From: a virus
Virus record (IMG/VR): IMGVR_UViG_3300029813_000255
Coordinates: 16,612-80,611 of that record
Reading direction: 5' to 3' (one strand)
DNA: 64,000 nucleotides
Below are positions 1,309 to 60,219 of this stretch, piece after piece (the stretch's first letter is position 1; every line of letters starts with the position of its first letter). The notes under the pieces were generated by a model. It searched no databases, had not been told where the DNA came from, and saw nothing but the letters and a program-made list of their open reading frames with translations. The position numbers and the translations under genes were made by a program.

Positions 1309-1686
1309 ATGATAGAAAAGAAAATAGTACTATCATTAATGATAGTACTATTTGTGATATTTATATATGTAGTAATTTCCATTATTACATACCCAACCGA
1401 AGATTTGATAGCATACGAATGTCCAGAAGACAATAAAGTGCAATTTGAAGACCATAAAGTTATGTATGTTGTAGTAGATATGCAGTCAAGACCCTGTAAG
1501 GATATGCTAATTGAAATTATTTGTAATAGTAAAATACAACACAATGTTACACAAATTGATGGTAGTTGTTTATTTAGACAGAGTGGATATTCTAACTACA
1601 CGATAAGAGTTTATAACAAAACTATGAGTGCGCAGAAAGAGTTTAATATATATCCACTTAAAGCTTGTTATTTGCTTGTTACGTGA
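1309..1686 (+). CDS. Small membrane-anchored hypothetical protein
   Basis: N-terminal hydrophobic helix followed by a soluble domain. Confidence 0.55.
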   Translation: MIEKKIVLSLMIVLFVIFIYVVISIITYPTEDLIAYECPEDNKVQFEDHKVMYVVVDMQSRPCKDMLIEIICNSKIQHNVTQIDGSCLFRQSGYSNYTIRVYNKTMSAQKEFNIYPLKACYLLVT

Positions 1687-1717
1687 TAGATACAACAAAA
1701 GAAAAAGAGCAAAAATA

Positions 1718-2443
1718 ATGCGTACCATCACAAACACTATCCAAACTACTTTTTCATCAAGCTTGGAGACGCGAGCTTTATATTTGTATGATTGCTATGT
1801 CGGTATAAGTAAAAATAACAAACATGGCAATTACCTTGATGTGGGATGTGGTTATGGAGTTAATTCATCTATTTTCGGACAAGACTTTAATACCGTTTCT
1901 TGTCTCGATCTTAGTACTGAAAATTTGAATGAATGCAGAAGACGTATCACTTCGGAGAACAATAAAAAATCATTCTTTATAAGAGGTGATGCGCAGTCAC
2001 TACCTTTCAAACCCGATTGTTTTGATTTAATTTCAGCTTTCTCACTTATTGAGCATGTCACAGATAAACGAGCAATGCTAAGTAATCTTTTAAGTGTGTT
2101 AAAGAAAGATGGCGAGCTTGTGCTTCAATTTCCAAATAAGTATTTCTTTGTGGAGTTACATACAGGCTTACCTGTTTATTTTATTGTCCCATCTTTTATA
2201 AAACCTTGGTTTCTTAGGAAAATAGGCTATGAGAGACTGTTGGAGATAAATATTCCTACGATAAAAGAGATAAAAAGGATAATAGAAGGTTTAAGTGTTT
2301 CAGTCACGATAAGAAAATCTAAGGTGATATATCCAATAGAAACGATTCCGCGTGAATTGAGGTGGATATACAGAATTTTGAAAAAGCTAAAAGTACTGGA
2401 TTTAGTACCTATGGGATGGATAGTATGTATTAGGAAAGCCTGA
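1718..2443 (+). CDS. Class I SAM-dependent methyltransferase (Methyltransf_11-like)
   Basis: YLDVGCGYG motif I, GDAQSLPF, FDLISAFSLIEHV; start moved to ATG 1718. Confidence 0.85.
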   Translation: MRTITNTIQTTFSSSLETRALYLYDCYVGISKNNKHGNYLDVGCGYGVNSSIFGQDFNTVSCLDLSTENLNECRRRITSENNKKSFFIRGDAQSLPFKPDCFDLISAFSLIEHVTDKRAMLSNLLSVLKKDGELVLQFPNKYFFVELHTGLPVYFIVPSFIKPWFLRKIGYERLLEINIPTIKEIKRIIEGLSVSVTIRKSKVIYPIETIPRELRWIYRILKKLKVLDLVPMGWIVCIRKA

Positions 2444-2657
2444 AAGGTAATTTTTCAGACTACAAAGGAGAAAAAAAATGATAGAAAAAATATTGTTATA
2501 TATATTTATGGCGATGTGGGTAGGTAGTATAATTAGTTGCTTTACAATAGGAGTTCTTATGGAAGATCATAAAAAGTTAGAAAAAAATGCAATATTACCT
2601 GTAATTATCGGTATAATAACAACTTTTGTGATAACAACACAATGGTGGTAAAAACAA

Positions 2658-3647
2658 ATGAAAACAAAAATAGCGTTTGTATATTATGGAGATAGTACAT
2701 TCGTAGAACAGGACTATAATATCCTATCTAAGTCCTTTGAAGTTCGTAAAGTGCAATTTGCTGGTATCAAGAGTATTTACGATATATACAAAGCAACGAA
2801 GTGGGCAGATGTATCTTTCTGCTGGTTTGCGGATGTGTGGTCATTCATTGCAGTTGTATCTGCGAAACTATTAAAAAAGAAGTCAGTTGTAGTTATAGGT
2901 GGTTATGATGTTGAATGTGTAAAAGAGATTGAATACGGCATGTGTACAAAACCGTGGTGGCGTAGGTGGATGCGTACTTACACATTAAAGAACGCTACAA
3001 TGCTTTTAGCGGTATCTGAATACACAGCACAAAAAACGCACCTGTTTGTTTATAAAGATGCACGTAAACTAAGTGTTGTTTACAACGGTATAAATATAAA
3101 CTATTTTGTACCAAAAGGCAAAAAAGAAAATATTGTATTAACGGTTGCTTCGGGTGGCAACAATGATATAATCAGATTAAAAGGGCTTGATACTTTTGTC
3201 AAAATTGCAAAATACGTACGGAATACAAAATTTGTTGTAGTGGGATTAGATGAGAAAACCAGATACGAATTAAGTAAAATAGCTATTAGCGATAACATAA
3301 AACTATTAGGTAAGCTTCCGCAAGATGAACTTCTAAAATGGTATCAACGTGCAAAAGTGTATTGTCAACTATCTAAAGTAGAGAGTTTTGGTATGTCGTT
3401 AGCAGAAGCAATGTCGTGTGGATGTGTACCTGTTGTTCATGGTGTAGGTGGAATGCCAGAAGTGGAATGTCATACAGGAATTGAAGTAATGTTAGTTGCG
3501 AATTCTAAAATGGTTGCACATAGTATACGTGAAGCATTACATATAGCAAATGATTTAAAAGGAGTAGAAGCAAGAGAACACATACAATATTGTTTTTCTA
3601 TTGAAGAACGCGAACGGAAATTAGTACAAATATTGGAGGAAATATAA
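2658..3647 (+). CDS. GT4-family (GT-B) glycosyltransferase
   Basis: AVSEYT, VYNGI, KGLD, ESFGMSLAEAMSCGCVPV (EX7E). Confidence 0.92.
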   Translation: MKTKIAFVYYGDSTFVEQDYNILSKSFEVRKVQFAGIKSIYDIYKATKWADVSFCWFADVWSFIAVVSAKLLKKKSVVVIGGYDVECVKEIEYGMCTKPWWRRWMRTYTLKNATMLLAVSEYTAQKTHLFVYKDARKLSVVYNGININYFVPKGKKENIVLTVASGGNNDIIRLKGLDTFVKIAKYVRNTKFVVVGLDEKTRYELSKIAISDNIKLLGKLPQDELLKWYQRAKVYCQLSKVESFGMSLAEAMSCGCVPVVHGVGGMPEVECHTGIEVMLVANSKMVAHSIREALHIANDLKGVEAREHIQYCFSIEERERKLVQILEEI

Positions 3648-3648
3648 A

Positions 3649-4698
3649 ATGAAACCGTTAGTAAGTATAGTCATACCTGCTTTTAATGCCGAAAAATACA
3701 TAAGAGAAGCCGTGCTCTCTGTATATAAACAATATTATTCACCTTTTGAAGTTATTGTGGTTAATGACGGATCAACTGATAAAACAAAAGAATTTTTGTT
3801 AGATTCAGAGATGTTGCAAGTAACGGGTGATACATTGAACGTAATAGAATTGCCTAAAAACGAAGGCGCCGGAAATGCTTTGCGAGTCGGTTTTGAAGCA
3901 GCTAAAGGTGATTATGTGTGTTGGCTTTCAGCAGACGATAAATTTGTGGATGTAAATAAAACAAAGAAACAAGTAAAAGTAATGCAACAAACAAATGCCG
4001 ACTGGTCGTACTATCCACAATTTCAAATGGGTGCAACAGTTAAGGATTCTAAGAAGGTAGTATCGCATTGCATTCCACACATTTCGTTCTTAGACGATAA
4101 AATCGAACGTGATAGCGGACTACTTTTCTTATCGTTATTATTTCACAATCCTATAAACGGCAGTACAACAATGTTCAAACGTGAAACTCTCAAAAACTTC
4201 GGTACTTTTGATAGCACTTTGAAACGCGCGGATGCTGATGGTGATCTTTGGCTACGATATGCTGTTTTAGGTGCAAAAGTAGTACGTGTAGAAGGAGGTT
4301 CGATTTTATATCGTACTCATTCCGCACAACTATCTAAAGATACAGAAGCGATGCTTTATGGTACAGAAATAACAAGATGTCGTGCTTTGAAATCAATCGA
4401 AGATACTACTTATTGTTTTGATGCTCTCTTAAATAAAAACAAATGGTTGCTATATGGTATGTTTACATTGCAACAATATAAGAAACGTCCTTTTGTGAGT
4501 AGAATGTTATGTTTACATGTGATAAGACATAGTGCGATGTACTCTTCTATGTTTGTGCGGTTTTGTGATAAGATTTTTAGAAAAGTGGATATGTACATTG
4601 AAAACATTCTTGATTGGGCACGATTTGAATGTGAATTAGAAAGAGCGATGGTATCGGATGAATACAAAAAGCATTTAGAGAGATTTAACAACAAATGA
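3649..4698 (+). CDS. GT2-family (GT-A) glycosyltransferase
   Basis: VSIVIPAFN, VVNDGSTD, WLSADD, DGDLWLR. Confidence 0.92.
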   Translation: MKPLVSIVIPAFNAEKYIREAVLSVYKQYYSPFEVIVVNDGSTDKTKEFLLDSEMLQVTGDTLNVIELPKNEGAGNALRVGFEAAKGDYVCWLSADDKFVDVNKTKKQVKVMQQTNADWSYYPQFQMGATVKDSKKVVSHCIPHISFLDDKIERDSGLLFLSLLFHNPINGSTTMFKRETLKNFGTFDSTLKRADADGDLWLRYAVLGAKVVRVEGGSILYRTHSAQLSKDTEAMLYGTEITRCRALKSIEDTTYCFDALLNKNKWLLYGMFTLQQYKKRPFVSRMLCLHVIRHSAMYSSMFVRFCDKIFRKVDMYIENILDWARFECELERAMVSDEYKKHLERFNNK

Positions 4699-5678
4699 AG
4701 AAAATACTAAGTATCATAGGAAACCGACCGAACACACTCAAATGGAGTGTATTATCACTTGAACTACGAAAAGTGTTTAAAGAAGTGGTTATTCACACGG
4801 GACAGCATTACGATTACAATATGGATGGTAGCTTCTTTAAAGATATGCACTTAAGTAAACCAGATTACTTCTTAGAAGTGGGGTCGGCGACACACGGTAA
4901 ACAAACGGGAGAGATGCTATCACAAATCGAAGCTATTTTATTGCAAGAAGAGCCAGATTGTGCTATTGTCTTCGGAGATACAAACACAACTTTAGCGGGT
5001 GCGTTAGCAGCGTCTAAGCTAAACATAAAAGTAGCGCATGTAGAAGCGGGGGTGCGGTCTTTTAACATGAAGATGCCAGAAGAGTTGAACCGTGTATTAG
5101 TAGACAACTCTTCAGATTACTTGTTTTGTCCTACACAAAAAGCGTTGTTCAATTTAGAATACATGGAAGGTAAGAAACATCTTTGTTACTGTGGAGATGT
5201 TCTGGTGGATTTAGTACATAAATATGCGTTTACTAACCATTCTGATATATTAAATGAGTTAAATACCAAAAGAGGGAAATATTATGTTGTTACAATACAC
5301 AGAGAGGAGAATACAACACAAAAAGAGCATTTTGAAAACATCATTAAAGATTTGTTTGGTTTGAAGTTTCCTGTTATTTTTCCATGTCATCCCCGTACAT
5401 ATAAGAAGATCGTGGAATGGGACTTGTTAGATGAATGGTTTTTTCATGACGTTTGTGTCTATGAACCATTAAGTTACACAGACATGCTCTATTTAATACA
5501 AAACGCGAGACGTGTATACACGGATTCCGGTGGTGTGCAACGTGAAGCACTTATCTTAGATGTGCCATGTACGGTATTACGAAAAGAAACCGAATGGGAC
5601 GGTTTGAAAGACGATCATATGTTTAACAAAACAGGTGCATGTAAAGCTATTGTCACGACTTTAAAGGAGGTGTTATAA
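4695..5678 (+). CDS. wecB: UDP-N-acetylglucosamine 2-epimerase (non-hydrolysing)
   Basis: HTGQHYD, GDTNTTLAGA, HVEAGVRS, MPEELNR, TDSGGVQREA. Confidence 0.93.
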   Translation: MKKILSIIGNRPNTLKWSVLSLELRKVFKEVVIHTGQHYDYNMDGSFFKDMHLSKPDYFLEVGSATHGKQTGEMLSQIEAILLQEEPDCAIVFGDTNTTLAGALAASKLNIKVAHVEAGVRSFNMKMPEELNRVLVDNSSDYLFCPTQKALFNLEYMEGKKHLCYCGDVLVDLVHKYAFTNHSDILNELNTKRGKYYVVTIHREENTTQKEHFENIIKDLFGLKFPVIFPCHPRTYKKIVEWDLLDEWFFHDVCVYEPLSYTDMLYLIQNARRVYTDSGGVQREALILDVPCTVLRKETEWDGLKDDHMFNKTGACKAIVTTLKEVL

Positions 5679-6899
5679 GTGAAAATCGTATTGATTAATC
5701 CACCAAGTCAATATTTAGAGAATGACGCTGCATATCCGCCAATGGGTTTGATGTATTTGGCTACACCTTTAGAAAAAGCAGGGCATGAAGTAGAGATATT
5801 GGATTTGACAGCTACAGTAAATTGGAAGCAAAAAGTACAATCGGTAGAAGCGGATTTGTTTGGTATCACCTGCGTTACTCCTAACTATCCAACAGTAAAA
5901 GAGATATGCCATTTATTGCCTGGAGAAATACCGAAAATGGTTGGCGGTGCACATCCTACTTTTATGCCGTATGATGTATTTAACGATTTAAAAGGATGTA
6001 CTGTGGTAAAAGGTGAAGCAGACAATATGATAGTAGATATAGTAAATGATGTCAAAGAAGGTAATCTTTTCGGTATTTATAACGGCATCCCTAATAAACC
6101 TGCACGCCACTTTTTAGCTAACAAACCTGCACGCCACTTAGTAGATTTACATAAATATACTCCAGGTGGAGAGAAGGCAACACCTGTTTATACTTCACGG
6201 GGATGTCCATATAATTGTACTTTTTGCTCAAAAATCACTGGAAACTATCCTCATATGTTTCATATTTCTCAGATAATTGGAGAAATAGAAGAGGTAAAAG
6301 AGATAGGATTTAATAATATTGTATTTGGCGATGACAATATAGCAGCACGTCCTTTGCATCTAAAAGCGTTATTGGGAGCAGTAGTGCCGTTAGATATAAC
6401 ATTTAGGTTGAATATGGATTCACGTCATATTACAACGGATATGCTTAAACAAGCAAAAGAAGCAGGTTGCACAGAAATAAGCATGGGTATTGAATCCGGT
6501 AGTCAAAAAATGTTAAACGCTATGAATAAACAAACAATAGTAGAAAGAAACAAAAGAGCAATAGAAATGATAAAAGAAGCAGAGATCGTAGCGAAAGCGT
6601 ATTTCATGGTGAATTTTCCGGGCGAAACCGAAACCACAGTACAAGAAACTATAGACTTCATACGAGGAACACAACCAGATAAAAGCTTTCTTTCCGCGTT
6701 TGCACCGCTTCCAGGTAGCTACGTATTTAAGCATCCTGCAGAATATGGTATCACGTGGATGTCATCGGATTGGAGTGATTACTATTTAGTGGGTAAAGAA
6801 TTCGTACCATGTTTTATGTCTGAAGGATTAAGTATTAGAAATCAAACACGTTTTTATCAGACTTTACAGTGCGCAATTGAAATGGAGGAACAAAAATGA
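5679..6899 (+). CDS. Cobalamin-binding radical SAM protein (class B methylase-like)
   Basis: PPMGLMYLA and VGGAHPT B12-binding region; SRGCPYNCTFC (CX3CX2C); GIESGSQ, PGET. Confidence 0.9.
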   Translation: MKIVLINPPSQYLENDAAYPPMGLMYLATPLEKAGHEVEILDLTATVNWKQKVQSVEADLFGITCVTPNYPTVKEICHLLPGEIPKMVGGAHPTFMPYDVFNDLKGCTVVKGEADNMIVDIVNDVKEGNLFGIYNGIPNKPARHFLANKPARHLVDLHKYTPGGEKATPVYTSRGCPYNCTFCSKITGNYPHMFHISQIIGEIEEVKEIGFNNIVFGDDNIAARPLHLKALLGAVVPLDITFRLNMDSRHITTDMLKQAKEAGCTEISMGIESGSQKMLNAMNKQTIVERNKRAIEMIKEAEIVAKAYFMVNFPGETETTVQETIDFIRGTQPDKSFLSAFAPLPGSYVFKHPAEYGITWMSSDWSDYYLVGKEFVPCFMSEGLSIRNQTRFYQTLQCAIEMEEQK

Positions 6900-7819
6900 A
6901 AAAAATCTTAGTATTGGGTGGTGCAGGAGTAGTAGGACGACATTTAGTACGTGCATTACGAGAGATAGATGAATATGAAGTGTGGGTTTTTGATCGTGTG
7001 AGGAAAACCGAAGAGAATTACATTCGAGGTGACATTGTAGATTATTATAGTATATCGAAAGCGTTTAGTCGAGTGCAACCAGATATAGTAGTGCATTTGG
7101 CGGGTATGGTCTCACGTTGGGAATGTGAAGAGACACCCATATTAGCTATACAAACAAACATAACAGGTATGTTCAATGTATGTTCACTTTCGTTACGGTA
7201 TGGCGCAAGGTTGCTTTATTCTGGTACCTCAGAGGAATATGGTTCGGAGTTTGAAGACGGTGCAATCGTAACAGAAGAAACTCCTTTGGGTGCGGCAACA
7301 AATGTATATTGTCTAACGAAACGAAATGCAGATGAAATGGTACATTATTTTGCACACGCTAAACAATTAAGAGCAACGACTATGCGGTTCTTTATGTTTT
7401 ATGGTACAGATGATGAACTCACGGACTATCGCTGTGCTATTACGAGATTTGTGCACGATGCACTACAAAACAAAACGTTGTTGGTACATGAAGGCACGGA
7501 ACGTAGTTGGTGTTATATGCCAAATGCGATAGAAGCAATACAAAAGATAATTGAACGTAAGCAAAAAGAAAACTACGAAATATTTAATATTGGTAAAGAA
7601 GACCCTGTTACAGCAGAAGATTTAGCAGAGATGATAATATATCGAGTGGGTGCAGGGAGAATTGAGATGATACCAGCAGAAAGCACAATAACGCCGATAA
7701 AGCGAGGAAGTTTTGAAAAGGCGAAACGAGAATTAGGATGGGAAGCTACTACATATTTAGGTGATGGATTAGACGAAGTAGTTCGATGGATGAAAACGAA
7801 AATCGAAATAAGACTATGA
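6896..7819 (+). CDS. NAD-dependent nucleotide-sugar epimerase/dehydratase (extended SDR)
   Basis: LVLGGAGVVG, VVHLAG, SEEYG, YCLTK (YxxxK). Confidence 0.92.
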   Translation: MKKILVLGGAGVVGRHLVRALREIDEYEVWVFDRVRKTEENYIRGDIVDYYSISKAFSRVQPDIVVHLAGMVSRWECEETPILAIQTNITGMFNVCSLSLRYGARLLYSGTSEEYGSEFEDGAIVTEETPLGAATNVYCLTKRNADEMVHYFAHAKQLRATTMRFFMFYGTDDELTDYRCAITRFVHDALQNKTLLVHEGTERSWCYMPNAIEAIQKIIERKQKENYEIFNIGKEDPVTAEDLAEMIIYRVGAGRIEMIPAESTITPIKRGSFEKAKRELGWEATTYLGDGLDEVVRWMKTKIEIRL

Positions 7820-8142
7820 GACAAATAACTGGTAGGATTTGGTTAGGACGCTTGAAAGTAACATTTACACGTGTAAGTATGTACTTCTCGTATGTTAACT
7901 TTCTTTTATTGATTATGACGTTTTACAGTATAACAGGTTACAAATACGCTTCTTTATGGTTGTTTGCTTTAGTTGGTATAGTTGGTATTATAACTATGGG
8001 ATTGATTGACTATTTTGTTATGCTTCCATCCGAACAGGCTTTTATGAATCAACAGTTTGCACGCCATCAAAATCCAATATATGAAGATGTAAAGTACATC
8101 CGCAACGCTTTAGAAACAAAAAATGAGAAAAAAGATGAATGA
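7816..8142 (+). CDS. Small two-TM membrane protein
   Basis: Two hydrophobic segments; start coupled to the epimerase stop. Confidence 0.55.
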   Translation: MRQITGRIWLGRLKVTFTRVSMYFSYVNFLLLIMTFYSITGYKYASLWLFALVGIVGIITMGLIDYFVMLPSEQAFMNQQFARHQNPIYEDVKYIRNALETKNEKKDE

Positions 8143-8587
8143 ATGTAGAACAGTAAAATCTATTATAGTATATACAAAAACAAACGGATTCTGTACTTTT
8201 CTTAGTTCATATGGATATGTATATGTAAGAGAGAATATTGACAGGATTATTATGTCAGATTGGAAAGATTTTCTACGGTTGGTGTACTGTAACTATACAG
8301 ACTTGAACGGTTATCGTATCGTGGAAAACAATGACTCAATAAAAGTACGTAGGTTTGTAGAAGAGGAGAAGGAGACGTAATAACCAAATGGTACTTCCAA
8401 ATTTAGAAGGGTATTACAAAGAACGTGATAGATTAGTACGGGAAACAGAAATGGACTACATAGATGCTTGCAATTAAGCATGGCGCACAGAAATTGATAA
8501 GAAAAAAGAGAAAGGAACAAGGTATTAATAAAAAAGAAACGTTGGAATCCTTGTTCTTTATTATTTGTGTTGGATTAGTTGGATTAA

Positions 8588-8899
8588 CTAATACCCAGCG
8601 CCTCCACCACCGGTGCCGCCGAATCCACCTCTGATGTAGTATATGATTAGACCAGCCAGAACAGCTATTACTACGATCACCATCATTGACCATCCGGTAT
8701 TCATAATGGCAGTGATTTTTGTGAGTGCCGTATAGAATATACTACCACTCGTTATCTTTGCTATTCCATATATTTCGTTCACAACGTATACGGAGATTAC
8801 ACCTATCACTACAACGAAGAATATACCCATGGCTACGTCCTGTAGTTCTGCCATAGCTTTAACATCTTTGTGGAATTTTTCTATTGTATCTTTTATCAT
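8588..8899 (-). CDS. Putative major capsid protein of spindle-shaped-virus type (two hydrophobic helices) with class III signal peptide
   Basis: Own TATA (8941-8952, - strand) and GGAGGTGA SD (8905-8912) place the start at 8899; leader MIKDTIEKFHKDVKA|MAELQD; mature 88-aa hydrophobic helix-loop-helix with Gly-rich tail; T-rich tract downstream. Confidence 0.65.
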   Translation of the reverse strand: MIKDTIEKFHKDVKAMAELQDVAMGIFFVVVIGVISVYVVNEIYGIAKITSGSIFYTALTKITAIMNTGWSMMVIVVIAVLAGLIIYYIRGGFGGTGGGGAGY

Positions 8900-8962
8900 G
8901 TTGTTCACCTCCGCTTACAAATATATAGAAAAAAACATACTATATAAACTTTTAACAAAAAA

Positions 8963-9559
8963 ATGAAATTCAAAACCCTATTTGCTCTTTTTCTTAGTGC
9001 GTCAATTATTAAACTATTGTTCGCGGCGACCATAAATTCACCGCATATAGTCTTCGATGAGACAATTTTATTTATTGAATCTCAAACTATATGGCACAAT
9101 CACAGTTACTTCGGTGGAAGATTATTTGAATTTCCTCAGTATCCGCCTCTTTATCCTCTGCTTATCAGTCCAACAGCCGTTTTTACTGATGTAGTGCAAT
9201 CTTTTAAAGCGATTTTAGTAATAAACTGTTTTATCTCAAGCACGGTAATCTTTCCTGTGTATTATCTTGCAAAGGAATACCTACCTGAACGCGAAACACA
9301 GTTTACAGTCATCTTGATGTGTATATTACCATCATGTTTTCTCTATTCTTATGCTGTAATGTGTGAGAACTTGTTCGTACCATTATTTTTCTGTTCAATA
9401 TACTTTATAAAGAAGAGCATAGACGAGGATAGTTTCAGAAATAATACTCTAACAGGTGTTTTTATATCACTTACGGTTTTAACAAAACTAACTGGTTTGG
9501 TTCTGGTAGGAGTTTATGTTATAGTTAAAATATTTATGTATTTTAAAAGGATAGAATAA
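8963..9559 (+). CDS. GT-C (ArnT/PMT-like) membrane glycosyltransferase, N-terminal part
   Basis: FDE after TM1, YPPLYPLL, MCENLF, LTKLTG; polytopic. Confidence 0.78.
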   Translation: MKFKTLFALFLSASIIKLLFAATINSPHIVFDETILFIESQTIWHNHSYFGGRLFEFPQYPPLYPLLISPTAVFTDVVQSFKAILVINCFISSTVIFPVYYLAKEYLPERETQFTVILMCILPSCFLYSYAVMCENLFVPLFFCSIYFIKKSIDEDSFRNNTLTGVFISLTVLTKLTGLVLVGVYVIVKIFMYFKRIE

Positions 9560-10498
9560 ATGAAAAATAATACACTTTTTGGACTTCTTATAATCGTTCT
9601 TGTAATCATTATGTACTTCTTTCTAAATGCTTCTCACTATGGTACTTCTTCTCACTCAACCATAACAGGGTATGGAACAGGACGATTTACAACACAATTT
9701 TTTCCGCTTTTACTTGCACAGACTTTGTACCTTTCTCTGGCAGGAGCCGGAATAGCGTTCTTACTTTTTTTCGGTAAGCTCAAACAGTTCAAATTGTTCT
9801 GGTTAATAATTATTAGCTCGTTTATATTCATTGCTTATGCAATGCCTACTATGGGCGTTCACGGACGATATGTGGACGTGTTTGTCCCTTTGATGATAAT
9901 AGGTGCATTTGCATATAAGGAAGGAAATAAACTACGTTTATTGCAAGGTTTTACACTTATTCTCGTATCAATACCAATGTTCTGCTTGTTTTGGAGAGAT
10001 ACAATAAATACTTTCTCTAATATCTATGTACTTATTCCATATATTCAGTATCTCTATGTACCATATATATTTTTAGTGTTTCTTTTTTTGACATCAATGA
10101 CTGTTAAAGATAGAAAGAGAATTGCAACGATAACGTTTGTACTTTTACTCATAACGTTCACAGCGGGAAACGTTACAAACTTTCAATATCTTAATCAAGC
10201 TTCGGATAACGCTTACGAGCACAGTTTAATAGGAAGGTATATCAATGAAAACAAGAACGTTGACGTAACCTTTGACAAGGATAACTTTGAAGATTGGTGG
10301 GGCACGTACTGTTTACTGAATTACTACAACTCAGGATACATACCAGTGGAAGATACTGAAAACATGACAGGCAACTACTTCATTTCGTCAAAGACACTGC
10401 CTTGCGATGTATTAGTAACAAATAAAAAATTCTGTTTAGTAGAAGAAGATAATAGTACAGAACTGTTATATCTATATAGGATAGGAAGAAAATGCTAA
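9560..10498 (+). CDS. Polytopic membrane protein, probable C-terminal part of the GT-C glycosyltransferase
   Basis: In-frame TAA-ATG junction with the preceding ORF; HGRYVDVFVP (RY motif of GT-C C-halves); soluble C-terminal domain. Confidence 0.6.
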   Translation: MKNNTLFGLLIIVLVIIMYFFLNASHYGTSSHSTITGYGTGRFTTQFFPLLLAQTLYLSLAGAGIAFLLFFGKLKQFKLFWLIIISSFIFIAYAMPTMGVHGRYVDVFVPLMIIGAFAYKEGNKLRLLQGFTLILVSIPMFCLFWRDTINTFSNIYVLIPYIQYLYVPYIFLVFLFLTSMTVKDRKRIATITFVLLLITFTAGNVTNFQYLNQASDNAYEHSLIGRYINENKNVDVTFDKDNFEDWWGTYCLLNYYNSGYIPVEDTENMTGNYFISSKTLPCDVLVTNKKFCLVEEDNSTELLYLYRIGRKC

Positions 10499-10926
10499 AA
10501 ACAACCGTTGTATTGCTTTGCTTCTTGTTTGCTTCATATTTTGACATTAAAACAAGAGAAGTCAGTAACAATTTGTGGGTGATCGTGTTTCCATCAGGAC
10601 TGTTATTTTTCAGCTATGCGTTACTTCTTTCGTTTTTCACAGTCTTAACCTCGTTCTTAATAACAGCGACCTTTGCTTTAGGATGCTGGAAATTTAAACA
10701 ATTCGGTGGAGCGGATACAAAAGCGATCATAATAATAGGCTTGTTCTATCCATACTGGATGTACGGTGTACCTTTTGCTATTTTAGCTACTTCAATAGGT
10801 TGTGCTGTACTCATTATTTTTTATGGTATCCAAAAGAAGTTTCATTTTAAGGAGCACTATCCTTTAATCCCATTCTTTACAGTTGGTTTGATCCTACTGC
10901 AAACATTAAGGTTTATAAACTATTAA
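10492..10926 (+). CDS. Prepilin peptidase (A24 family, PibD/FlaK-like aspartic peptidase)
   Basis: ASYFDIKTREVSN (first catalytic Asp) and FGGADTK (GxGD-type second Asp); multiple TM helices. Confidence 0.88.
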   Translation: MLKTTVVLLCFLFASYFDIKTREVSNNLWVIVFPSGLLFFSYALLLSFFTVLTSFLITATFALGCWKFKQFGGADTKAIIIIGLFYPYWMYGVPFAILATSIGCAVLIIFYGIQKKFHFKEHYPLIPFFTVGLILLQTLRFINY

Positions 10927-10931
10927 TAGGA

Positions 10932-11156
10932 ATGAGTATTATTATGGAAAACGAAAGCACGGAAGTAAAGAAAATGAACAAAGCGACAATAATAGGTTTG
11001 GTAGTGGTAGTACTATTCTTTATACTACCTATAGCCAATGGAAACTCTGTCATTCCGAGCTGTATATCAGAGATAGAAGTAGGTGAGTTCATAGGTGGTA
11101 TATTGAACTACTGGATAACAGTAGTGAAGACAATAATTGCAACCGTGAAGTGGTAA
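10932..11156 (+). CDS. Small membrane protein
   Basis: Hydrophobic N-terminal segment; TATA-like AAGGTTTATAAA at 10908. Confidence 0.5.
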   Translation: MSIIMENESTEVKKMNKATIIGLVVVVLFFILPIANGNSVIPSCISEIEVGEFIGGILNYWITVVKTIIATVKW

Positions 11157-16028: not shown

Positions 16029-19000
16029 ATGGAAACCACAAAAAGAGATGGGAAGAGAAAGAAATTATTTCCATTTGGAGACTACGACAAGGACGGCGTA
16101 CCTAATCTAAGAGATTGTGATCCATTTGATTCCGCAAAACATGGTATATCATATGGTCCCAGAGGAAGAAGTATGCCATCTCGTGGAAGAGGTGGAGGAA
16201 CATATACTGTGGGCGGGCAAACTGCAAAATTTGCTGGTGGACGAATTGTAAGTGTAGGTCCCAGTACAGGTGTAAGTAGAGGTGGAGGTAGAGGTGCACC
16301 TTCCGTATATGAAACATTAACACCATACGGACAATCGGTATATCGTGCAACTCGTGGTATGACACCAAGTAAACGTGGAGGTGCTATTGCTACATACGAA
16401 AGGGCACAGCGCGCACCAGGCACACTTACTTCAACGGAACGTGCAATGATCAGATCACATCTTGCTGAGTTTTCTTCTGAATTCAGACGAAAATTTGCTG
16501 AAGTTGAACGTAAGCTTACTCAGGCTGAACTAAAAAAGAAACTGGCAGAGAGAAAGAAGAAAATAATAGCAGAACGTCATGTTATAAAAAAAGGAGTCCC
16601 GTTATTCATACCAGGTGTTCCAAGCCTACTTTATGGAGTCACACCTAAAACAAAGGAGATGATTAGAGGAATAAAACCTAAAATAGTGCCTACAACTGTA
16701 TCGTTGGTTAAAAAGGGTATTAAATTTACTCCTTTTGGAATTGCCACTGCTCCTGCTGTAGCTATTGCAGAAAGAATAAAACCAAAAATAATACCTGCAA
16801 TCAAAGAATACGAAACCTTTGTAAAAACACAAATACGAAAGACGAAAGAACATCCTATGGTTAAACCCTTTATGTATGCAACTACACGCGAGTATATCGA
16901 AGCAACCCCAGAAAAACAGGTTATAATGGCAATAGAATCAGCTAAAGGAAGAGCATTAACAACAAAAGAAAAAGCTGATATACATAAAGACGTTGTAAAA
17001 GGAGAAATAGCGCATGGTAAATATAGAAAGTTATTTGGTTTACCAGCAAAACCAACACCGCGTGAAGTTGAAGCTGGTAAATTCAGAGCAGAAGTTCTAA
17101 CAGGTCAATTAGCTCCTGCAGAAGAACGTTTTGCGAGATTGATTATCGAACCAATGGGATTAGCTGTGAAGGGCGAAAAAGCTAAAGCAAGAGCAGAACA
17201 GGCAAAACGAATAGAAAGCAGTTATAAAATATCTGAAAGTCATATAAAAAAAGAATGGATAAGTCCGAAAGGAGAAGTTGTTTTACCACTAAAAATAAAG
17301 CCAGGTATAGAAACACTTGCCAGAAAAAACCCAGAAAAATACACTACTCCAGAAGGATTCTATAAAAGAGAATACGTTGAACTTACACCGGAAGCACAGA
17401 AATATGCTACTGCATATGAAACATATATAAACGAGTCTGCAAAACTCGGTGAAATGCCAAAAGCACATCCAACAAGACAGTTTGCCGCAGGAGGTGTAAA
17501 AATGCTTGCTGGTCTGCCTTTAATGCCGATTTTTATAGGACGAGTTGCTGCTGAGACTGTCGTCAAACCAACTGCTGCTCCAGGTAAGGCAGTTGCTTTT
17601 GGTACAGGAATGTATAAATACGCTAAAAAAGAGCCTTATGAATTTACCGGATCGGTAGCCGCAATGTGGGGTTTGGGTGGATTCAAAGGTGCTCCTGTGA
17701 AACCTAAAATTGCCGTTGCCAAATTTCCAAAAGCCAAAGCAGTAAGTATTGGTATAGAAAGAGTAATAAGACCGGGATTCTTAAAGAGAGGGGGATATAG
17801 AGAATATTATCCAGGAATTACAATTGGAAAAGGAGGTATAAAAAGGGTTTCAATTGGTAAACCAAAGATCAAAGGGGAAATATACGGAGATAAACCAATT
17901 GAAATAACAACACCTTTTGAAGCAAGATTAGTAGTGAGTGCTATACCAGCAGAAGCAGCGAAAATACTTGAATCGAGAGCGGTATTGCGTTATATTACAA
18001 AAGCAGGGGTAACAGCAAGAGAATTAACACCTGTTATCAGAGAAACGTTAGGACATCATGGATTAACAAAATCTACTAATACAGTAATTAAACTTCTAAA
18101 AAAGGAAAAAGCAGACTTACATGGTTCAATAATGCAAGAAGCTGCAACAAGAAAATATGGTATTACACGCAGGACACCTGCCGATATTGACTTAAAAGTT
18201 GCCGATATGGAAAGATTTGCAAGAAACGCAATCAAAGAAATTAACAAAGCCGAAGGTAGAGAAGCCGTTATACTCAAAGGTAAAAAGGTTATAATCAAGA
18301 AAACAGGCGAAAAATTATTTGATATTCACGGCAAAGGAGAACCTGGATTGTATGGTTCGATTTTTGATGAAGGTTATATGGGTTTAGGAATGAAAGAAGA
18401 TCCATACTTTAAAACGGCCGAAGGATTAAAAACTACTTCACTTTTAAGACAAACAACCAGAAAGTTTACAGCGGCACAAACAATTGCCGCTAAAGTTCGC
18501 GAATTTCCAATGGCTATGAAAGAAGTAGCTGAAGTATTCAGAGGTATGAAATACACACCAAAACTTAAATCAAAGATACTTAAAGGGCATCCAAGAGGTG
18601 ATAAAAGTATAATTTCTGCTGGAACCGATAGATTACAATTCCATCATATTGTTAAAACAGGAAAAGGTGAAACAGGAGTTTTAATGACTTATAATGAGCA
18701 TTTAGCCATTGAAACTGCAATGGGTCGTCTTGGACCAGCAATCGGAAAAGATACTTTATTTCACAAATTATTTAGAGAAAGACCATCTCTTACACCGAAA
18801 GAAATTCAAGATATAATTAGACAAGGAAAATCTAAGCAGGTTCGGAACGAAATTAAATATATCTTAAAGGAAATAAAAGCAAGAGAAACAGGTATTGATC
18901 CTTTCACAATAAAAGGAAGAATAATGCCTGAGCATAAAGGTAGAGTGAAAGATATTGCCGATGCCTACTTTGATAGTAAAGCGATGATAGCAGGATTAAA

Positions 19001-19541
19001 ACATAGAGGTAGAATAGTATCAGCAAGACAAGCAGATATTCATTTAGATAAGTGGTTAGACTCGTGGGGAAAAGATACCGCAAACCATGTTAAAAGTTTG
19101 TATAAAGAGACAATAAAGAAAGAAGGTACTGAAAAAGCGTGGTTAGGTAGTTTTGAAGAGAGACCATATTCTTTATCGAAATCATACAATCTTGTTAGTC
19201 AACTTAGGTATGTTCCACCTATATCAGCTATACCATCAGCTATACCATCAGCTATACCATCAGGACTTGTACCTTCAAAAATACCACCACCGAAGTATCC
19301 GCCTTCAAAAATACCACCACCGAAGTATCCGCCTTCAAAAATACCGCCTTCAAAAATACCACCAATTGTACCGAAAGTGCCACTGAAACTAAAACCGAAA
19401 CCCGAAACGAAAGAGGAAAAAAGACGCAGACTAAAGCGAAAAAGAGAGACATATTACAAATACGGTGAAATTACACCAATCGCAACACCGGAGCAAATAT
19501 TAGGAGGTATCTTCACAAAAGGAAAAAAATGGGGAAAATAA
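16029..19541 (+). CDS. 1170-aa basic protein with internal nucleotidyltransferase-like domain (candidate virion core protein)
   Basis: N-terminal DYDKDGVPNLRDCDP; RG-rich region; hydrophobic middle; HGS...ADIDL, FDIH, RVKDIAD NTase motifs; Pro-rich repeats. Confidence 0.6.
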   Translation: METTKRDGKRKKLFPFGDYDKDGVPNLRDCDPFDSAKHGISYGPRGRSMPSRGRGGGTYTVGGQTAKFAGGRIVSVGPSTGVSRGGGRGAPSVYETLTPYGQSVYRATRGMTPSKRGGAIATYERAQRAPGTLTSTERAMIRSHLAEFSSEFRRKFAEVERKLTQAELKKKLAERKKKIIAERHVIKKGVPLFIPGVPSLLYGVTPKTKEMIRGIKPKIVPTTVSLVKKGIKFTPFGIATAPAVAIAERIKPKIIPAIKEYETFVKTQIRKTKEHPMVKPFMYATTREYIEATPEKQVIMAIESAKGRALTTKEKADIHKDVVKGEIAHGKYRKLFGLPAKPTPREVEAGKFRAEVLTGQLAPAEERFARLIIEPMGLAVKGEKAKARAEQAKRIESSYKISESHIKKEWISPKGEVVLPLKIKPGIETLARKNPEKYTTPEGFYKREYVELTPEAQKYATAYETYINESAKLGEMPKAHPTRQFAAGGVKMLAGLPLMPIFIGRVAAETVVKPTAAPGKAVAFGTGMYKYAKKEPYEFTGSVAAMWGLGGFKGAPVKPKIAVAKFPKAKAVSIGIERVIRPGFLKRGGYREYYPGITIGKGGIKRVSIGKPKIKGEIYGDKPIEITTPFEARLVVSAIPAEAAKILESRAVLRYITKAGVTARELTPVIRETLGHHGLTKSTNTVIKLLKKEKADLHGSIMQEAATRKYGITRRTPADIDLKVADMERFARNAIKEINKAEGREAVILKGKKVIIKKTGEKLFDIHGKGEPGLYGSIFDEGYMGLGMKEDPYFKTAEGLKTTSLLRQTTRKFTAAQTIAAKVREFPMAMKEVAEVFRGMKYTPKLKSKILKGHPRGDKSIISAGTDRLQFHHIVKTGKGETGVLMTYNEHLAIETAMGRLGPAIGKDTLFHKLFRERPSLTPKEIQDIIRQGKSKQVRNEIKYILKEIKARETGIDPFTIKGRIMPEHKGRVKDIADAYFDSKAMIAGLKHRGRIVSARQADIHLDKWLDSWGKDTANHVKSLYKETIKKEGTEKAWLGSFEERPYSLSKSYNLVSQLRYVPPISAIPSAIPSAIPSGLVPSKIPPPKYPPSKIPPPKYPPSKIPPSKIPPIVPKVPLKLKPKPETKEEKRRRLKRKRETYYKYGEITPIATPEQILGGIFTKGKKWGK
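19223..19363 (+). repeat. Coding tandem repeats (12 bp x3, 30 bp x2, 15 bp x2)
   Basis: ATCAGCTATACC x3 (SAIP); CCTTCAAAAATACCACCACCGAAGTATCCG x2 (PSKIPPPKYP). Confidence 0.95.
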
Positions 19542-19816
19542 GAACATTTCTTAGTGACAAAAACGCACAGTCTGGAGGCGTGATTACTTTTGTGGCTGTA
19601 ATTTGTCTATTTTCATTTTTATATATATGCCTTGGCATGTTCATGGATCAAGTTATTACTATGCAGAATACCTTTGATCTACCATGTACGCAAGAACGAA
19701 AGGACGCGCTGGAGACATGCTTTTTATATTGGTATTCGTTGCCCATTCTGGTATTACTGGGGATCGTCACCTGGATGATAAAAAATGCGCTCCGCGCAAA
19801 GTCAGGTTGGGTGTGA
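19529..19816 (+). CDS. Two-TM pilin/minor-capsid-like protein with class III-like leader
   Basis: MGKIRTFLSDKNA|QSGGVITF followed by two hydrophobic helices. Confidence 0.55.
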   Translation: MGKIRTFLSDKNAQSGGVITFVAVICLFSFLYICLGMFMDQVITMQNTFDLPCTQERKDALETCFLYWYSLPILVLLGIVTWMIKNALRAKSGWV

Positions 19817-19823
19817 CAAAGTG

Positions 19824-20126
19824 ATGGATAACAAAGGCTTTGGTATAATAGATGGAGTACTGACACTTACCATAGGCATTGTCGTCACGACCTTTATTGT
19901 CTTCGCAGCCGGTATGGCACTGGACAGCTTTATATTCGAGTTTCAGTCGCTTGAGTTTGTATTAACAGATACTTTTTCAGAAGCAATGGAAGGTGTTAAC
20001 GTACTCGGTGAAATGTTTTATATGATACCAATATTTATGCTGTTCATACTTACAGTATGGTTCTTCGCTGGAATTGTGCGTCGCCACACCTATACAAGAT
20101 ATGACGAAGAAGAGGAAGAGTGGTAA
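19824..20126 (+). CDS. Two-TM pilin/minor-capsid-like protein with class III leader
   Basis: MDNKG|FGIIDGVLTL followed by two hydrophobic helices; start moved to 19824. Confidence 0.6.
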   Translation: MDNKGFGIIDGVLTLTIGIVVTTFIVFAAGMALDSFIFEFQSLEFVLTDTFSEAMEGVNVLGEMFYMIPIFMLFILTVWFFAGIVRRHTYTRYDEEEEEW

Positions 20127-24547: not shown

Positions 24548-25762
24548 ATGACAAAAGTAAAGTGTTTGATATGTGGAAAAGAATTTGATTGGCTACCTCC
24601 TCACTTGAGAATTCATAATATTACTACCAAAGAATATTACAATAGATTTCCAGACGCTAAAATTATGGCAGATAATTTATCTCGTACAGGAGAAAATAAT
24701 CCTGCGTATGGTAAACCTGCATGGAATAAAGGATTAACTAAAGAAACTGATAAAAGAGTTGAGAAATATTCAGGTAGCAGACCAGGTTCAAGACCTGATT
24801 TAAAAGAAAAACAAACAGGGAAAACATTTGAAGAGATTTGGGGTATAGAAAAAGCTACTGAAATAAAAAAAAATATAAGTGAAACAGCTAAAGGAAAATA
24901 TGCCTCTGGTGAGACTATTTCAGAAAGGAAAGGCAAAACAAAGGAAAACGATACTGGATGTAAAAGAACAAGTGAAAAACTTAAAGGAAAACCAAAATCC
25001 GAAGAACACAAAAAAAAGTTGCGAGGAAAAAGAGGTCCAAATGAAAAATTAAAAGGGCGAATAATGTCAGAAGAGACCAGAAGAAAGATGAGCAAAGCGA
25101 AAGACAAACACGCTAAACGAAAAGTTAATTGTAAATACTGCAATAAAGAATTTGTTGCATATCGTTCAGTAATTGAAAGTGGTGTAGGAATTTTTTGTTC
25201 GATAAAATGCAAAGGAAAATACCAAACAGAACTTAATAAAGCTAACATATTAAAAACTAAATGTTCTTATTGCGGTAAAGAGATAACAATTACTCCGTCT
25301 CGAATGAAGGCGCGTACTAATCTTTTTTGTTCAGTAAAATGTAATGCAAAATGGAAATCCGAAAATCTAACTAAAGAAAAATCATATCTATGGAGGGGTG
25401 GAATATCCTTTAAACCATACTGTGAAAAATTTAATAATAATCTGAAAGAACGCGTTCGTACTTTTTTTGGTAGATGCTGTTATCTCTGCGGAAAAAATGA
25501 AATGGAAAATGGAAAAAAGCTTGACGTACATCACGTAAACTATCAAAAAATGGCGTGTTGTTCCGAAGAGATTAGACCTTTATTTGTTCCTTTATGTACA
25601 TCATGTCATGGAAAAACACACGGAAACAGAGAATACTGGAAAGATTTTTTTACTACAAGTTTAGAATACTTAACAGATGGGAAGTGTTTCTATACCAAAG
25701 ATGAAACAAAAGAAAGAATTCACAATATAAATATAGGCGGTGGTTCCCCTGCGCGCATTTGA
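24548..25762 (+). CDS. HNH homing endonuclease (Zn finger, NUMOD3, FCS repeats)
   Basis: CLIC..HLRIH, MSEETRRKMS, FCSxKC repeats, WRGG, CYLC..DVHHVNY..LCTSCHGKTH; own TATA at 24513. Confidence 0.88.
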   Translation: MTKVKCLICGKEFDWLPPHLRIHNITTKEYYNRFPDAKIMADNLSRTGENNPAYGKPAWNKGLTKETDKRVEKYSGSRPGSRPDLKEKQTGKTFEEIWGIEKATEIKKNISETAKGKYASGETISERKGKTKENDTGCKRTSEKLKGKPKSEEHKKKLRGKRGPNEKLKGRIMSEETRRKMSKAKDKHAKRKVNCKYCNKEFVAYRSVIESGVGIFCSIKCKGKYQTELNKANILKTKCSYCGKEITITPSRMKARTNLFCSVKCNAKWKSENLTKEKSYLWRGGISFKPYCEKFNNNLKERVRTFFGRCCYLCGKNEMENGKKLDVHHVNYQKMACCSEEIRPLFVPLCTSCHGKTHGNREYWKDFFTTSLEYLTDGKCFYTKDETKERIHNINIGGGSPARI

Positions 25763-26150
25763 AATTATACTTTTTATCCTGCTTTTACAAGCTTCTGTAG
25801 CGTTCGTAGGCAATATAGACCTATTTAAAGGTAGTGATCACATGGAATATTCTGCGTTAGCTGATAATCGCTATAGTACATGGAACGTTACAGGAGAACT
25901 ATCCGGATACAGTGTTGGGGAAGAAGCTTCAGCATGGGACTACTTTTCAGCTTCGGTAAGTTTCTTGATTGACGGACTGATAATGTTTTTCAAAATTATC
26001 TTTTCTGTGGTCTTTATATATCCGGTACTTGACAAAGTATTCGGACTTCCTTGGCAACTCTCGGCTTTGATACAGGTTGGTATTGTCACTATTTACATAT
26101 GGGGCTTAATGCAATACAAGAGCGGAAAATCTACGAAAATGATGGAATAA
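25740..26150 (+). CDS. Membrane protein (candidate virion protein)
   Basis: N-terminal hydrophobic segment and C-terminal TM helices. Confidence 0.6.
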   Translation: MVPLRAFEIILFILLLQASVAFVGNIDLFKGSDHMEYSALADNRYSTWNVTGELSGYSVGEEASAWDYFSASVSFLIDGLIMFFKIIFSVVFIYPVLDKVFGLPWQLSALIQVGIVTIYIWGLMQYKSGKSTKMME

Positions 26151-33538: not shown

Positions 33539-33802
33539 ATGCCAGCAAAAAAATATTCATATAGAGAACAAGATAGACGCGATGCAATACGATTAGCATT
33601 GCAACAAGCAAAAGGACGGGACGTTATCGTACAAAACAGGAAGTTGAAAGCAGAAGTAAATCGGCACGCTAAATTTTTTGAAGCATTAAAAAATGGAAAG
33701 GTCATCCCAAAACACATATACGATATAACGTTTAAGCGTGATTATCGTGGATTCATTAAGGATATAGAAAAATTTATTGGTAGGAAAGCATACGAAACAT
33801 GA
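33539..33802 (+). CDS. Small basic hypothetical protein
   Basis: ORF coupled to the next gene. Confidence 0.5.
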   Translation: MPAKKYSYREQDRRDAIRLALQQAKGRDVIVQNRKLKAEVNRHAKFFEALKNGKVIPKHIYDITFKRDYRGFIKDIEKFIGRKAYET

Positions 33803-36261: not shown

Positions 36262-36858
36262 GTGGAATCAAAAGTAGTAGTCTTATTAGGACTCTGTGTA
36301 ATTTTAGGATTTGCAATAAACGGAGTTACTGCTTTGGATACACCTTATTCACTCTCAGGACATGTCTATGATAATAGTAGTAATCCGTTAGTTGGTGTAA
36401 ACATTAAACTCACTAATATGAACAGTACCAATGTAATATATGCAACATCAACCAGTGGAGGTGAATACCAACAGGATGCAGCTAATTTTGTATTAGGATA
36501 CAACAATAGCGATATTATCCAATATTACTGCACTTACGGTGTTGACTCGGTTACGTATAATGCAAGCATAGATACGAGTGGAGGGGGAACACTACTTGAT
36601 ATGTATATAAATGTTACTCCTATTACTCCTATTGATGATATTCCTATGACAATCGGGGACTTTGCGAAAGATATAATGACACCTATTTTCAGTTTCTTTG
36701 CCATATTAATAATAGCAGCCTTTACAGGTGTAATTATTTATACCATTAAGTATGGAATCAAAATAGACATACTAACGAAACTGACATTAGGCTTCACTTT
36801 TGCTGTAATAATACTACTATTAGCTTTATATATAGGAGAAACGTTTAGTTCATTTTAG
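36262..36858 (+). CDS. Membrane-anchored protein with carboxypeptidase-regulatory-like domain
   Basis: PYSLSGHVYD..GEYQQDA; two C-terminal TMs. Confidence 0.7.
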   Translation: MESKVVVLLGLCVILGFAINGVTALDTPYSLSGHVYDNSSNPLVGVNIKLTNMNSTNVIYATSTSGGEYQQDAANFVLGYNNSDIIQYYCTYGVDSVTYNASIDTSGGGTLLDMYINVTPITPIDDIPMTIGDFAKDIMTPIFSFFAILIIAAFTGVIIYTIKYGIKIDILTKLTLGFTFAVIILLLALYIGETFSSF

Positions 36859-60125: not shown

Positions 60126-60219
60126 AACGAAAAATTTAGGAGGCGATATGAGAAAAATGGAAAATGTTTGTAATTGGGAGCGAAAAAGGACTAAACTAAA
60201 TAAAAACCGTTCGATAGCG

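Follow-up and report, generated by a model that had tools for sequence, protein, structure and literature searches.

Can a virus mature its capsid protein with an enzyme of the kind that processes prepilins? The question is raised by IMG/VR virus record IMGVR_UViG_3300029813_000255, in which a small minus-strand gene for a putative capsid protein with a charged leader lies close to a gene for an A24 (prepilin/class III signal) aspartyl peptidase. The window analysed here is the 64,000-nucleotide stretch formed by bases 16612–80611 of this 80,611-bp record, and coordinates refer to the window unless stated otherwise. An earlier reading of the bare letters (the sequence-only reading) had proposed that the virus matures its capsid subunits by type IV pilus-style processing, as part of a pilus-like system for virion extrusion. 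We arrive at a narrower proposal, which we favour tentatively: the protein would be a VP1-like capsid precursor matured by an A24-type cut at A15/M16, with the viral enzyme supplying or boosting the activity.

A two-helix capsid candidate

The gene and its signals are as follows.

8588–8899, minus strand: gene for a 103-amino-acid VP1-like two-helix hairpin protein, putatively the precursor of the major capsid protein (open reading frame, helices, PHROG, HMMER homologues, hhalign)
8855–8899, minus strand: charged 15-residue leader (codons 1–15) ending D12-V-K14-A15, with a proposed cut at A15/M16 (family alignment and hhalign to SSV1 VP1, SSV1 being Sulfolobus spindle-shaped virus 1)
8906–8948, minus strand: expression signals, with a TATA box TTTATATA at 8948–8941 and a Shine–Dalgarno sequence GGAGGTG at 8912–8906 (direct sequence reading)
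8501–8540, minus strand: T-rich tract past the stop codon, a likely archaeal terminator (direct sequence reading)

The letters themselves bear out the earlier description of a standalone minus-strand gene with its own TATA box, Shine–Dalgarno sequence and T-rich tail. The open reading frame (ORF) starts at ATG 8899–8897, 7 nt downstream of GGAGGTG, and its product begins MIKDTIEKFHKDVKA/MAELQDVAMG. An alternative GTG 9 nt upstream falls inside the Shine–Dalgarno sequence, and close homologues begin at the ATG. T-runs at 8539–8530 and 8510–8501 lie behind the stop codon.

Hydropathy and two AlphaFold runs (predicted local distance difference test score 73) give two long helices, at residues 2–46/50 and 53/54–89, followed by a disordered Gly-rich tail that ends in Tyr. 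The charged leader ending D-x-K-A (here D-V-K-A) ahead of a first and then a second helix, which the sequence-only reading had described, is present. A pair of hydrophobic helices with a short polar loop between them is the arrangement of VP1-like capsid proteins. The model is a helix–loop–helix with a disordered tail and not the single helix plus globular, mostly β domain of type IV pilins and archaellins, and no Pfam pilin or archaellin family matches the protein.

An exhaustive HMMER search returned 22 homologues of about 100–115 amino acids, and scans of JGI metagenomes and species genomes added 19 further loci. One 161-amino-acid homologue (protein P0003, on a 721-bp ENA contig) shares 91% identity with the window protein from residue 36 on; its N-terminal 93 residues are hydrophilic and unrelated and the first helix is absent. 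This homologue is either a recombinant or an assembly chimera.

The evidence that the 8588–8899 product is a capsid protein is weak but convergent, making this role probable, and it supports the protein as the best capsid candidate of the virus. The family phrog_16261, annotated as 'virion structural protein', matches the window protein at E 1e-4 and 8 of 19 family members (best E 2e-6). No other protein scanned has a structural PHROG match, including the six other small membrane proteins of the genome (0/6). The same PHROG is absent from SSV1, His1 and PAV1, and does match in the Methanosarcina acetivorans control genome. We calibrated hhalign with 19 decoy membrane proteins from SSV1, His1, PAV1, BLv25 and LSV-48N. 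SSV1 VP1 (P 4e-4, 93 columns), SSV1 VP3 (P 0.0014) and the PAV1 capsid protein (P 0.0015) rank above all 19 decoys, every one of which scores 0.043 or worse; P is 0.016 for BLv25 and 0.056 for His1. A six-sequence VP1 alignment gave P 0.0023, no gain over the single sequence.

Several results weigh against kinship with known capsid proteins. At the level of sequence, homology to VP1 is statistically insecure, with hhalign probabilities of 13–34%. Even with the threshold at E 10, HMMER detects neither PF06281 (VP1_VP3) nor PF25665 (His1_capsid) in the window protein, the 19 family members or any other part of the genome. Foldseek places SSV19 VP1 second in the whole PDB at E 3.5, and VIA-align superposes the model on it with Z 5.4 and a root-mean-square deviation of 3.5 Å over 65 of 69 residues, but a Z of this size is ordinary for a helical hairpin and can be reached by chance. 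Foldseek of a single-sequence model against viral structures was set aside, as it gave non-specific helical matches only. The nearest named ESM-Atlas clusters (VP1-like, 0.86; His1-capsid, 0.85) speak for a capsid role, as leads only. A tblastn search with the capsid-like protein against 50,697 phage and virus records gave no match, and IMG/VR scans with this protein, with the peptidase and with alignments of each found no relatives.

The leader site and the viral A24 peptidase

Across 37 distinct leader-bearing family members, from which all site statistics are drawn, leaders of 13–50 amino acids with unrelated sequences converge on one site. Position −1 is Gly or Ala in 35 of the 37 and −4 is Asp in 30; Lys or Arg stands at −2 or −3 in 28, Asp or Glu at +3 in 27 and Gln at +1 in 13. 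Among the typical forms are DRRG/QMDA, DKRG/QMDA, DTRG/AMDA, DKHG/IADL and DHRA/QTDA. The leader site on which the sequence-only reading relied is conserved in homologues. In one hhalign run, A15 aligns with G71 of the SSV1 VP1 open frame, the residue preceding the sequenced mature N-terminus; a second run has the same register if extended two residues back, and a third is one residue off.

VP1 in SSV1 virions is cut after KLTKG, leaving the Glu of KLTKG|E as mature N-terminus; deletion of KLTKG is lethal, E66A/Q is tolerated, and the protease was called unknown as of 2017 (PMC5748691). A 2022 minireview of SSV1 makes no mention of a protease or peptidase. For six of six fuselloviruses, with genes read directly (L002:12567–13001 and loci L033–L037), the VP1 site is stated as [KR][KR][GA]|E, the individual sites being TKG/E in SSV1 and ASV1, RKG/E in SMF1, KKA/E in SSV2, and RRA/E in SSV19 and SSVRH. 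A pattern of mutations in which the five upstream residues are essential and the Glu replaceable is as a class III signal peptidase would give. Beyond the fuselloviruses, the BLv25 capsid protein (L025:1012–1368) has a 46-residue extension ending DTRG/Q ahead of helix 1. We also observed that the VP1 leaders of SSV2 (14 residues) and SSV19 (11 residues) resemble textbook class III signals, and that His1 VP21 (L004:7341–7562) starts MVEIDDG/V, without a basic residue.

A24 peptidases cut on the cytoplasmic face. The basic C-tails and mostly net positive leaders of the family, together with the SSV19 structure, in which both VP1 termini point inward and the loop outward (PMC9351363), would place the leader site on this same face. 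Sites of the form D-x-x-[GA], with Lys, Arg or His at −2 or −3 and just before an N-proximal helix, occur in 4 of the 29 proteins of the genome that have such a helix. Shuffles give a mean of 0.32, and 1 in 2000 reaches 4 (P ~5e-4). Orthologues of two of the bearers retain their sites (GDRKG/Q and MKA/M), and the motif of a third is not conserved.

As in class III signals, the leader is short and charged, with Lys or Arg at −2 (K14) and Gly, Ala or Ser at −1 (A15). A class III signal also has a hydrophobic stretch directly past the cut, and here the correspondence fails: a polar spacer of seven residues (MAELQDV, which includes E18 and D21) stands between cut and core. The conserved Asp at −4 is atypical of pilins and archaellins and is no known feature of class III signals; the site would presumably fail the FlaFind pattern, and two family members have no leader at all. 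All of this tells against class III processing, and the leader site departs from a canonical class III signal. A comparable spacer, EATN, is present in SSV1 VP1, a protein that is cut in virions. A capsid protein with a class III-type leader is a plausible reading; the site is conserved and coincides with the SSV1 VP1 cut, and the spacer and the Asp at −4 are non-canonical.

The obvious candidate for cleaving the leader is the viral peptidase.

10492–10926, plus strand: 144-amino-acid A24 (prepilin/class III signal) aspartyl peptidase with D18 (10543–10545) and D75 (10714–10716) (Pfam PF01478, FlaK alignment)

Its match to PF01478 (Peptidase_A24) has E 6.8e-12 and a score of 46.2 bits, well clear of the curated cut-off of 26.5 (46.9 bits in the whole-genome scan). 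A24 catalytic motifs have a first Asp in D-[IL]-K/R-x-R-x-[IV] and a second in a GxGD-type motif; both are found, with D18 (YFDIKTREV) and D75 (FGGADTK) aligning with the SVQDFRSREI and IGGGDGK motifs of FlaK (3S0X). Both residues are invariant in seven sequences, the viral enzyme and six homologues of 72–85% identity. The start codons of the capsid-like gene and the peptidase are 1593 nt apart, so the claim of an A24 enzyme with both catalytic Asp residues 1.6 kb away holds. A capsid-family member and a peptidase homologue are each recorded on two ENA contigs, the longest of 60,473 bp, which is almost certainly the same contig for both.

The wider distribution of A24 genes counts against a need for the viral copy. 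None of 19 related loci (0/19) has an A24 gene within 10 kb of the homologue; ORFs downstream of the glycosyltransferase gene in two of these loci (L007 and L019) were considered as diverged peptidases and rejected, as they have no Pfam A24 match. The sole family provirus found in a named genome belongs to the Syntropharchaeia, for which reason this class was chosen for a test. In Ca. Syntrophoarchaeum butanivorans (L006, LYOR01000001.1), a stretch of about 10 kb carries a capsid-family gene together with a tyrosine integrase, a 1015-amino-acid primase-like protein and two large basic proteins. It is probably a small integrated relative, and looks to give one host lineage for the capsid family, which is present in 2 of 79 Syntropharchaeia genomes. 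A full-length A24 enzyme is present in 58 of the same 79 genomes, so that a viral copy would not be required if the host belongs to this class. The idea of a host lineage without an A24 peptidase was accordingly rejected for the Syntropharchaeia: S. butanivorans shows none, but 58 genomes of the class do have one. Viral peptidase and Syntropharchaeia A24 enzymes, which read GGAD, have an FGGADxKA core in common. In our own reading, the enzyme of the host normally serves the family, and the large virus has acquired a copy of its own, in shortened form, as an auxiliary gene.

Virus-directed maturation of the capsid by pilus-style processing thus retains the best capsid candidate, a conserved site matching the SSV1 VP1 cut and an intact neighbouring A24 enzyme, but has against it the 19 loci without such a gene nearby and the non-canonical signal. 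The proposed pilus-like extrusion system we reject. Pfam scans, which covered nearly all ORFs of at least 100 amino acids in the 80.6-kb genome, contain no PilB/FlaI ATPase and no PilC/FlaJ platform protein, and extrusion of this kind is unsupported because the virus has neither component and the mature protein is a helical hairpin and not a pilin.

Gene neighbourhood, proposed pathway and alternatives

Around the capsid-like gene and elsewhere in the window lie the following genes.

8963–10498, plus strand: GT-C (PMT_2/ArnT-like) glycosyltransferase in two abutting ORFs, 8963–9559 and 9560–10498 (Pfam PMT_2, E 4e-11)
7786–8142, plus strand: 118-amino-acid membrane protein, with orthologues immediately upstream of the homologue in L018, L019 and L022 (synteny)
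1628–7819, plus strand: sugar-modification genes, comprising a methyltransferase, GT1, GT2, a UDP-GlcNAc 2-epimerase, a B12-radical SAM protein and an NAD-epimerase (Pfam)
10932–11156, plus strand: small ORF past the peptidase with an internal start MNKA/TIIGLVVVV, a possible further substrate (sequence; no family match)
19529–19816, plus strand: 95-amino-acid two-helix protein with a leader ending FLSDKNA/QSGG, a possible paralogue and second substrate (hhalign P 0.002, 90 columns)
19824–20126, plus strand: 100-amino-acid two-helix protein with a class III-like N-terminus, MDNKG/FGIIDG (sequence)
37872–38123, plus strand: 83-amino-acid two-helix protein without leader, a distant capsid-like paralogue, as VP3 is to VP1 in SSV1 (phmmer, hhalign)

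The GT-C gene and the capsid-like gene lie on opposite strands, the former starting 63 bp from the latter, and the peptidase start overlaps the end of the GT-C gene by 7 nt. In eight related loci a GT-C orthologue lies directly downstream of the capsid-like gene, so the conserved neighbour is the GT-C and not the peptidase. The enzyme is a single ORF of 515 amino acids in L007 (10314–11861) and L008 (453–1997), and in this virus, L018, L019 and L021 it is divided in roughly the same place, giving ORFs of about 200 and 312 amino acids that abut or overlap, which looks like a natural two-subunit form and not a broken gene; the comparison also took in L022. The GT-C, the 118-amino-acid membrane protein and the sugar genes at 1628–7819 look like a capsid-maturation island, and the sugar would probably be attached to the conserved T-S-G-S loop. 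The conserved pairing of capsid-like gene and GT-C points to virus-directed glycosylation of the capsid.

Four related contigs have the capsid-like gene followed at once by orthologues of 19529–19816, 19824–20126, the gene for a 1319-amino-acid protein and 25740–26150. Because orthologues of these window genes directly follow it, the capsid-like gene heads a structural block (L015–L020). The orthologue of 19529–19816 follows the capsid-like gene throughout L015–L020 and reads GDRKG/QVG in L017. Orthologues of 19824–20126 start MSEVMKA/MIV and MSRLIEG/LIA, and this protein has no similarity to the capsid family in the hhalign comparison. The leaderless protein at 37872–38123 matches nine capsid-family members in phmmer (E 4e-5 to 4e-3), and hhalign gives P 0.0014 over 81 columns. 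A 252-amino-acid protein starting MVDKKG/F (genome 14460–15218, outside the window) was dismissed as a firm substrate, since its sole homologue starts MKKERIV and has no such site. Genes resembling NUMOD3/HNH-type homing endonucleases are dispersed in the genome (13034–13855 and 24548–25762), and one of them separates the 1319-amino-acid structural gene from 25740–26150, two neighbours that adjoin in related loci.

Starting from the gene anatomy, two-helix shape, intact peptidase, site conservation and synteny observed above, we infer a pathway that assigns the protein a capsid role, a cleavage, a protease and glycosylation. The precursor would insert in the host membrane as a helical hairpin, with both ends cytoplasmic and a short loop outward. 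Its 15-residue leader ends in D-V-K-A, which would act as a class III (prepilin-like) site just ahead of helix 1, on the cytoplasmic side of the membrane, and an A24 membrane aspartyl peptidase would cut it at A15/M16; the virus's own 144-amino-acid enzyme would supply or boost this activity, and smaller relatives would use a host A24 enzyme. The adjacent GT-C would probably glycosylate the exposed loop. Mature hairpin and leaderless paralogue (37872–38123) would then build the capsid, with the basic Gly-rich C-tail toward the DNA.

The strongest alternative, which we consider unlikely, is a capsid subunit that retains its leader. In that case D-x-[KR]-[GA] would serve as a hinge or as a helix cap, linking a basic, DNA-binding N-terminal arm to helix 1, and the clients of the peptidase would be the products of 19529–19816, 19824–20126 or 10932–11156, or host pilins or archaellins, for example in remodelling of the host surface. 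Retention is favoured by the SSV19 structure paper, whose authors assume, against cleavage, that the Arg-rich VP1 N-terminus stays in the virion and take it as a DNA-binding arm (PMC9351363). AlphaFold models leader and helix 1 as one continuous helix, and the motif occurs in relatives without a viral peptidase. Two of the other possible clients, with MDNKG/F (19824–20126) and MNKA/T (10932–11156), are also closer to canonical class III signals than the capsid-like protein, because their hydrophobic core begins right past the cut. On the other side, VP1 of SSV1 virions is cut at the aligned site, and the five residues upstream of that site are essential (PMC5748691). The leader varies in length and sequence while the site stays fixed, which suits a removed propeptide, and the window leader would be poor at binding DNA because its net charge is only +1.

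A second alternative also has the leader removed, but by a host enzyme only, which could be the A24 peptidase of the host or a protease of another family. The viral peptidase would then be an unrelated auxiliary gene that came to lie beside a glycosylation cassette. The site is indeed conserved in the 19 loci without a viral peptidase within 10 kb, A24 genes are widespread in Syntropharchaeia (58 of 79 genomes) and the FGGADxKA core common to viral and archaeal enzymes fits a recent capture. This alternative is nonetheless improbable: the peptidase is intact in seven variants of 72–85% identity, it stands last in the cassette next to the capsid-like gene and has an overlap with the GT-C gene, and four proteins of the genome have a D-x-x-[GA] leader.

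Least probable is that the protein is not a capsid subunit but a small membrane partner or substrate of the GT-C, or a membrane protein of egress or immunity, with another hairpin or an unrecognised fold forming the capsid: the GT-C as most conserved neighbour (eight loci), the lack of a match to a Pfam capsid family and the other two-helix proteins of the structural block speak for it, but no other protein scanned matches a PHROG annotated 'virion structural protein', all foreign decoys score below the known capsid proteins of spindle viruses, the gene stands first in the structural block of L015–L020 and occurs in the ~10-kb integrase-bearing stretch of L006 with few alternative candidates, and a glycosyltransferase neighbour would itself suit a capsid protein if SSV1 capsid proteins are glycosylated, as they are said to be.

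The virus and its relation to known systems

The 80.6-kb genome is bounded by 141-bp direct terminal repeats and encodes a family B polymerase, primase-like and clamp-like proteins, replication factor C (RFC)-like ATPases, helicases and a thymidylate synthase-like protein. None of the ORFs scanned with Pfam has an HK97, double-jelly-roll, terminase or portal domain. One further gene bears on the type of virus.

47203–48039, plus strand: DnaA-like AAA+ ATPase of a kind found in spindle-shaped viruses (phrog_5484, E 1.5e-13)

In tblastn against the 50,697 virus records, this ATPase matches only Halorubrum spindle-shaped virus BLv25 and lemon-shaped Haloferax LSV-48N. The source looks like an archaeal virus of the spindle type, large at 80.6 kb and with terminal redundancy.

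A set of giant proteins (1170, 1319 and 2349 amino acids) has β-helix, Ig and DUF2341 domains. Pfam gave no match for the 1170-amino-acid protein itself, which belongs to a pair of products (16029–19541 and 39680–40228) with the N-terminal motif G-D-x-D-x-D-G-V-P-N-x-x-D-C-x-P in common, which resembles a calcium-binding repeat. The four CarboxypepD_reg paralogues (33799–34566, 34563–35297, 36262–36858 and 38117–38983) are secreted, with a signal-like helix and then P-Y-S-L-S-G-H-[VI]-Y-D, and are probably virion fibre or adhesion proteins. A multiheme cytochrome c with a PGF-CTERM anchor/sorting signal (60148–61266) lies in a G+C-rich stretch (0.44 versus ~0.35) and looks like a host-derived auxiliary gene; together, cytochrome and PGF-CTERM signal hint at a methane- or alkane-oxidising euryarchaeal host.

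With somewhat less confidence than we attach to maturation of the window protein by an A24 cut, we suggest that spindle-virus capsid proteins generally, SSV1 VP1 included, may be class III substrates matured by A24 peptidases, with the host enzyme (PibD, FlaK or EppA) acting in small viruses and a captured copy accompanying the GT-C island in the 80-kb virus. Three lines converge on this suggestion: the [KR][KR][GA] site in VP1 of six of six fuselloviruses, a distant euryarchaeal capsid-like family that keeps the site, and one virus that encodes an A24 peptidase nearby. If true, it would name the VP1 protease, and prepilin peptidases would become host factors of an entire virus lineage. Challenged with an SSV9 variant, a pibD disruption mutant of S. 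islandicus grew without defect and yielded neither new virus nor replication of the viral genome; the authors ascribed the resistance to loss of pilins, and processing of VP1 by PibD is not addressed there (PMC7217056). Existing Sulfolobus tools, such as PibD assays and pibD mutants, make the hypothesis cheap to test. The searchable literature names no VP1 protease and proposes no role for a class III signal peptidase, and in the part of the literature covered we found no report of an A24 peptidase gene in an archaeal virus. Within that literature, the reading of a capsid protein with a class III leader is new.

Large spindle-shaped viruses with polymerase B genes occur in anaerobic methanotrophic (ANME-1) archaea, and one of them, Tepeuvirus PBV144, has a genome of 72.6 kb, of the same tens-of-kilobases order as the present one (PMC9894754). 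The words 'peptidase' and 'pilin' are absent from the main text of that paper (PMC9894754). Likenesses in gene content include a family B polymerase of the RNA-primed type, a thymidylate synthase gene and more than one hydrophobic helical capsid-like protein, and both genomes are divided into a structural arm and an enzymatic one. Genomes of large ANME-1 spindle viruses span 45–100 kb. The multiheme cytochrome with PGF-CTERM, taken to indicate a methane- or alkane-oxidising host, is a further likeness, whereas the capsid-like protein differs in having no sequence match in the phage and virus collection or in IMG/VR.

The viral enzyme resembles the archaeal class III peptidases PibD, FlaK and EppA in having both catalytic Asp motifs, and the window leader resembles their signals in being short and charged, with Lys or Arg at −2 and Gly or Ala at −1, and with a cut on the cytoplasmic side before a membrane helix. 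EppA substrates have Gln at +1, as do 13 of the 37 homologues, and PibD accepts non-pilin substrates such as sugar-binding proteins. Unlike in those systems, seven polar residues precede the hydrophobic core, −4 is Asp, the mature protein forms a hairpin and not a pilin with a globular domain, and no filament assembly ATPase or platform gene comes with the peptidase. At 144 amino acids the enzyme is also shorter than the open frames of about 240–330 amino acids in most Syntropharchaeia genomes. In this minimal A24 core it resembles the short prepilin peptidases of the TadV/CpaA type, which have no methyltransferase domain and a core of about 140–170 amino acids; those are bacterial and lie in Tad pilus loci, whereas the window enzyme is viral and its core archaeal-like.

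A further close comparison is with SSV1. Similarity to its VP1 is absent at the level of HMMER and weak in profile comparison (P 4e-4). The window family has a conserved Asp at −4 and an acidic +3 where SSV1 has Glu at +1, and the window protein bears a basic Gly-rich C-tail; its virus, with a probable euryarchaeal host and a genome five times larger, carries its own A24 peptidase, whereas SSV1 is without a protease gene. Against these differences stand a hydrophobic two-helix hairpin, about 70–90 residues long and polar (Thr/Ser/Gly) in its loop, an extension at the N-terminus that closes with [KR][GA] just ahead of helix 1, a leaderless paralogue in the same genome (VP3 there, 37872–38123 here) and nearby glycosylation genes, which would suit the reportedly glycosylated capsid proteins of SSV1.

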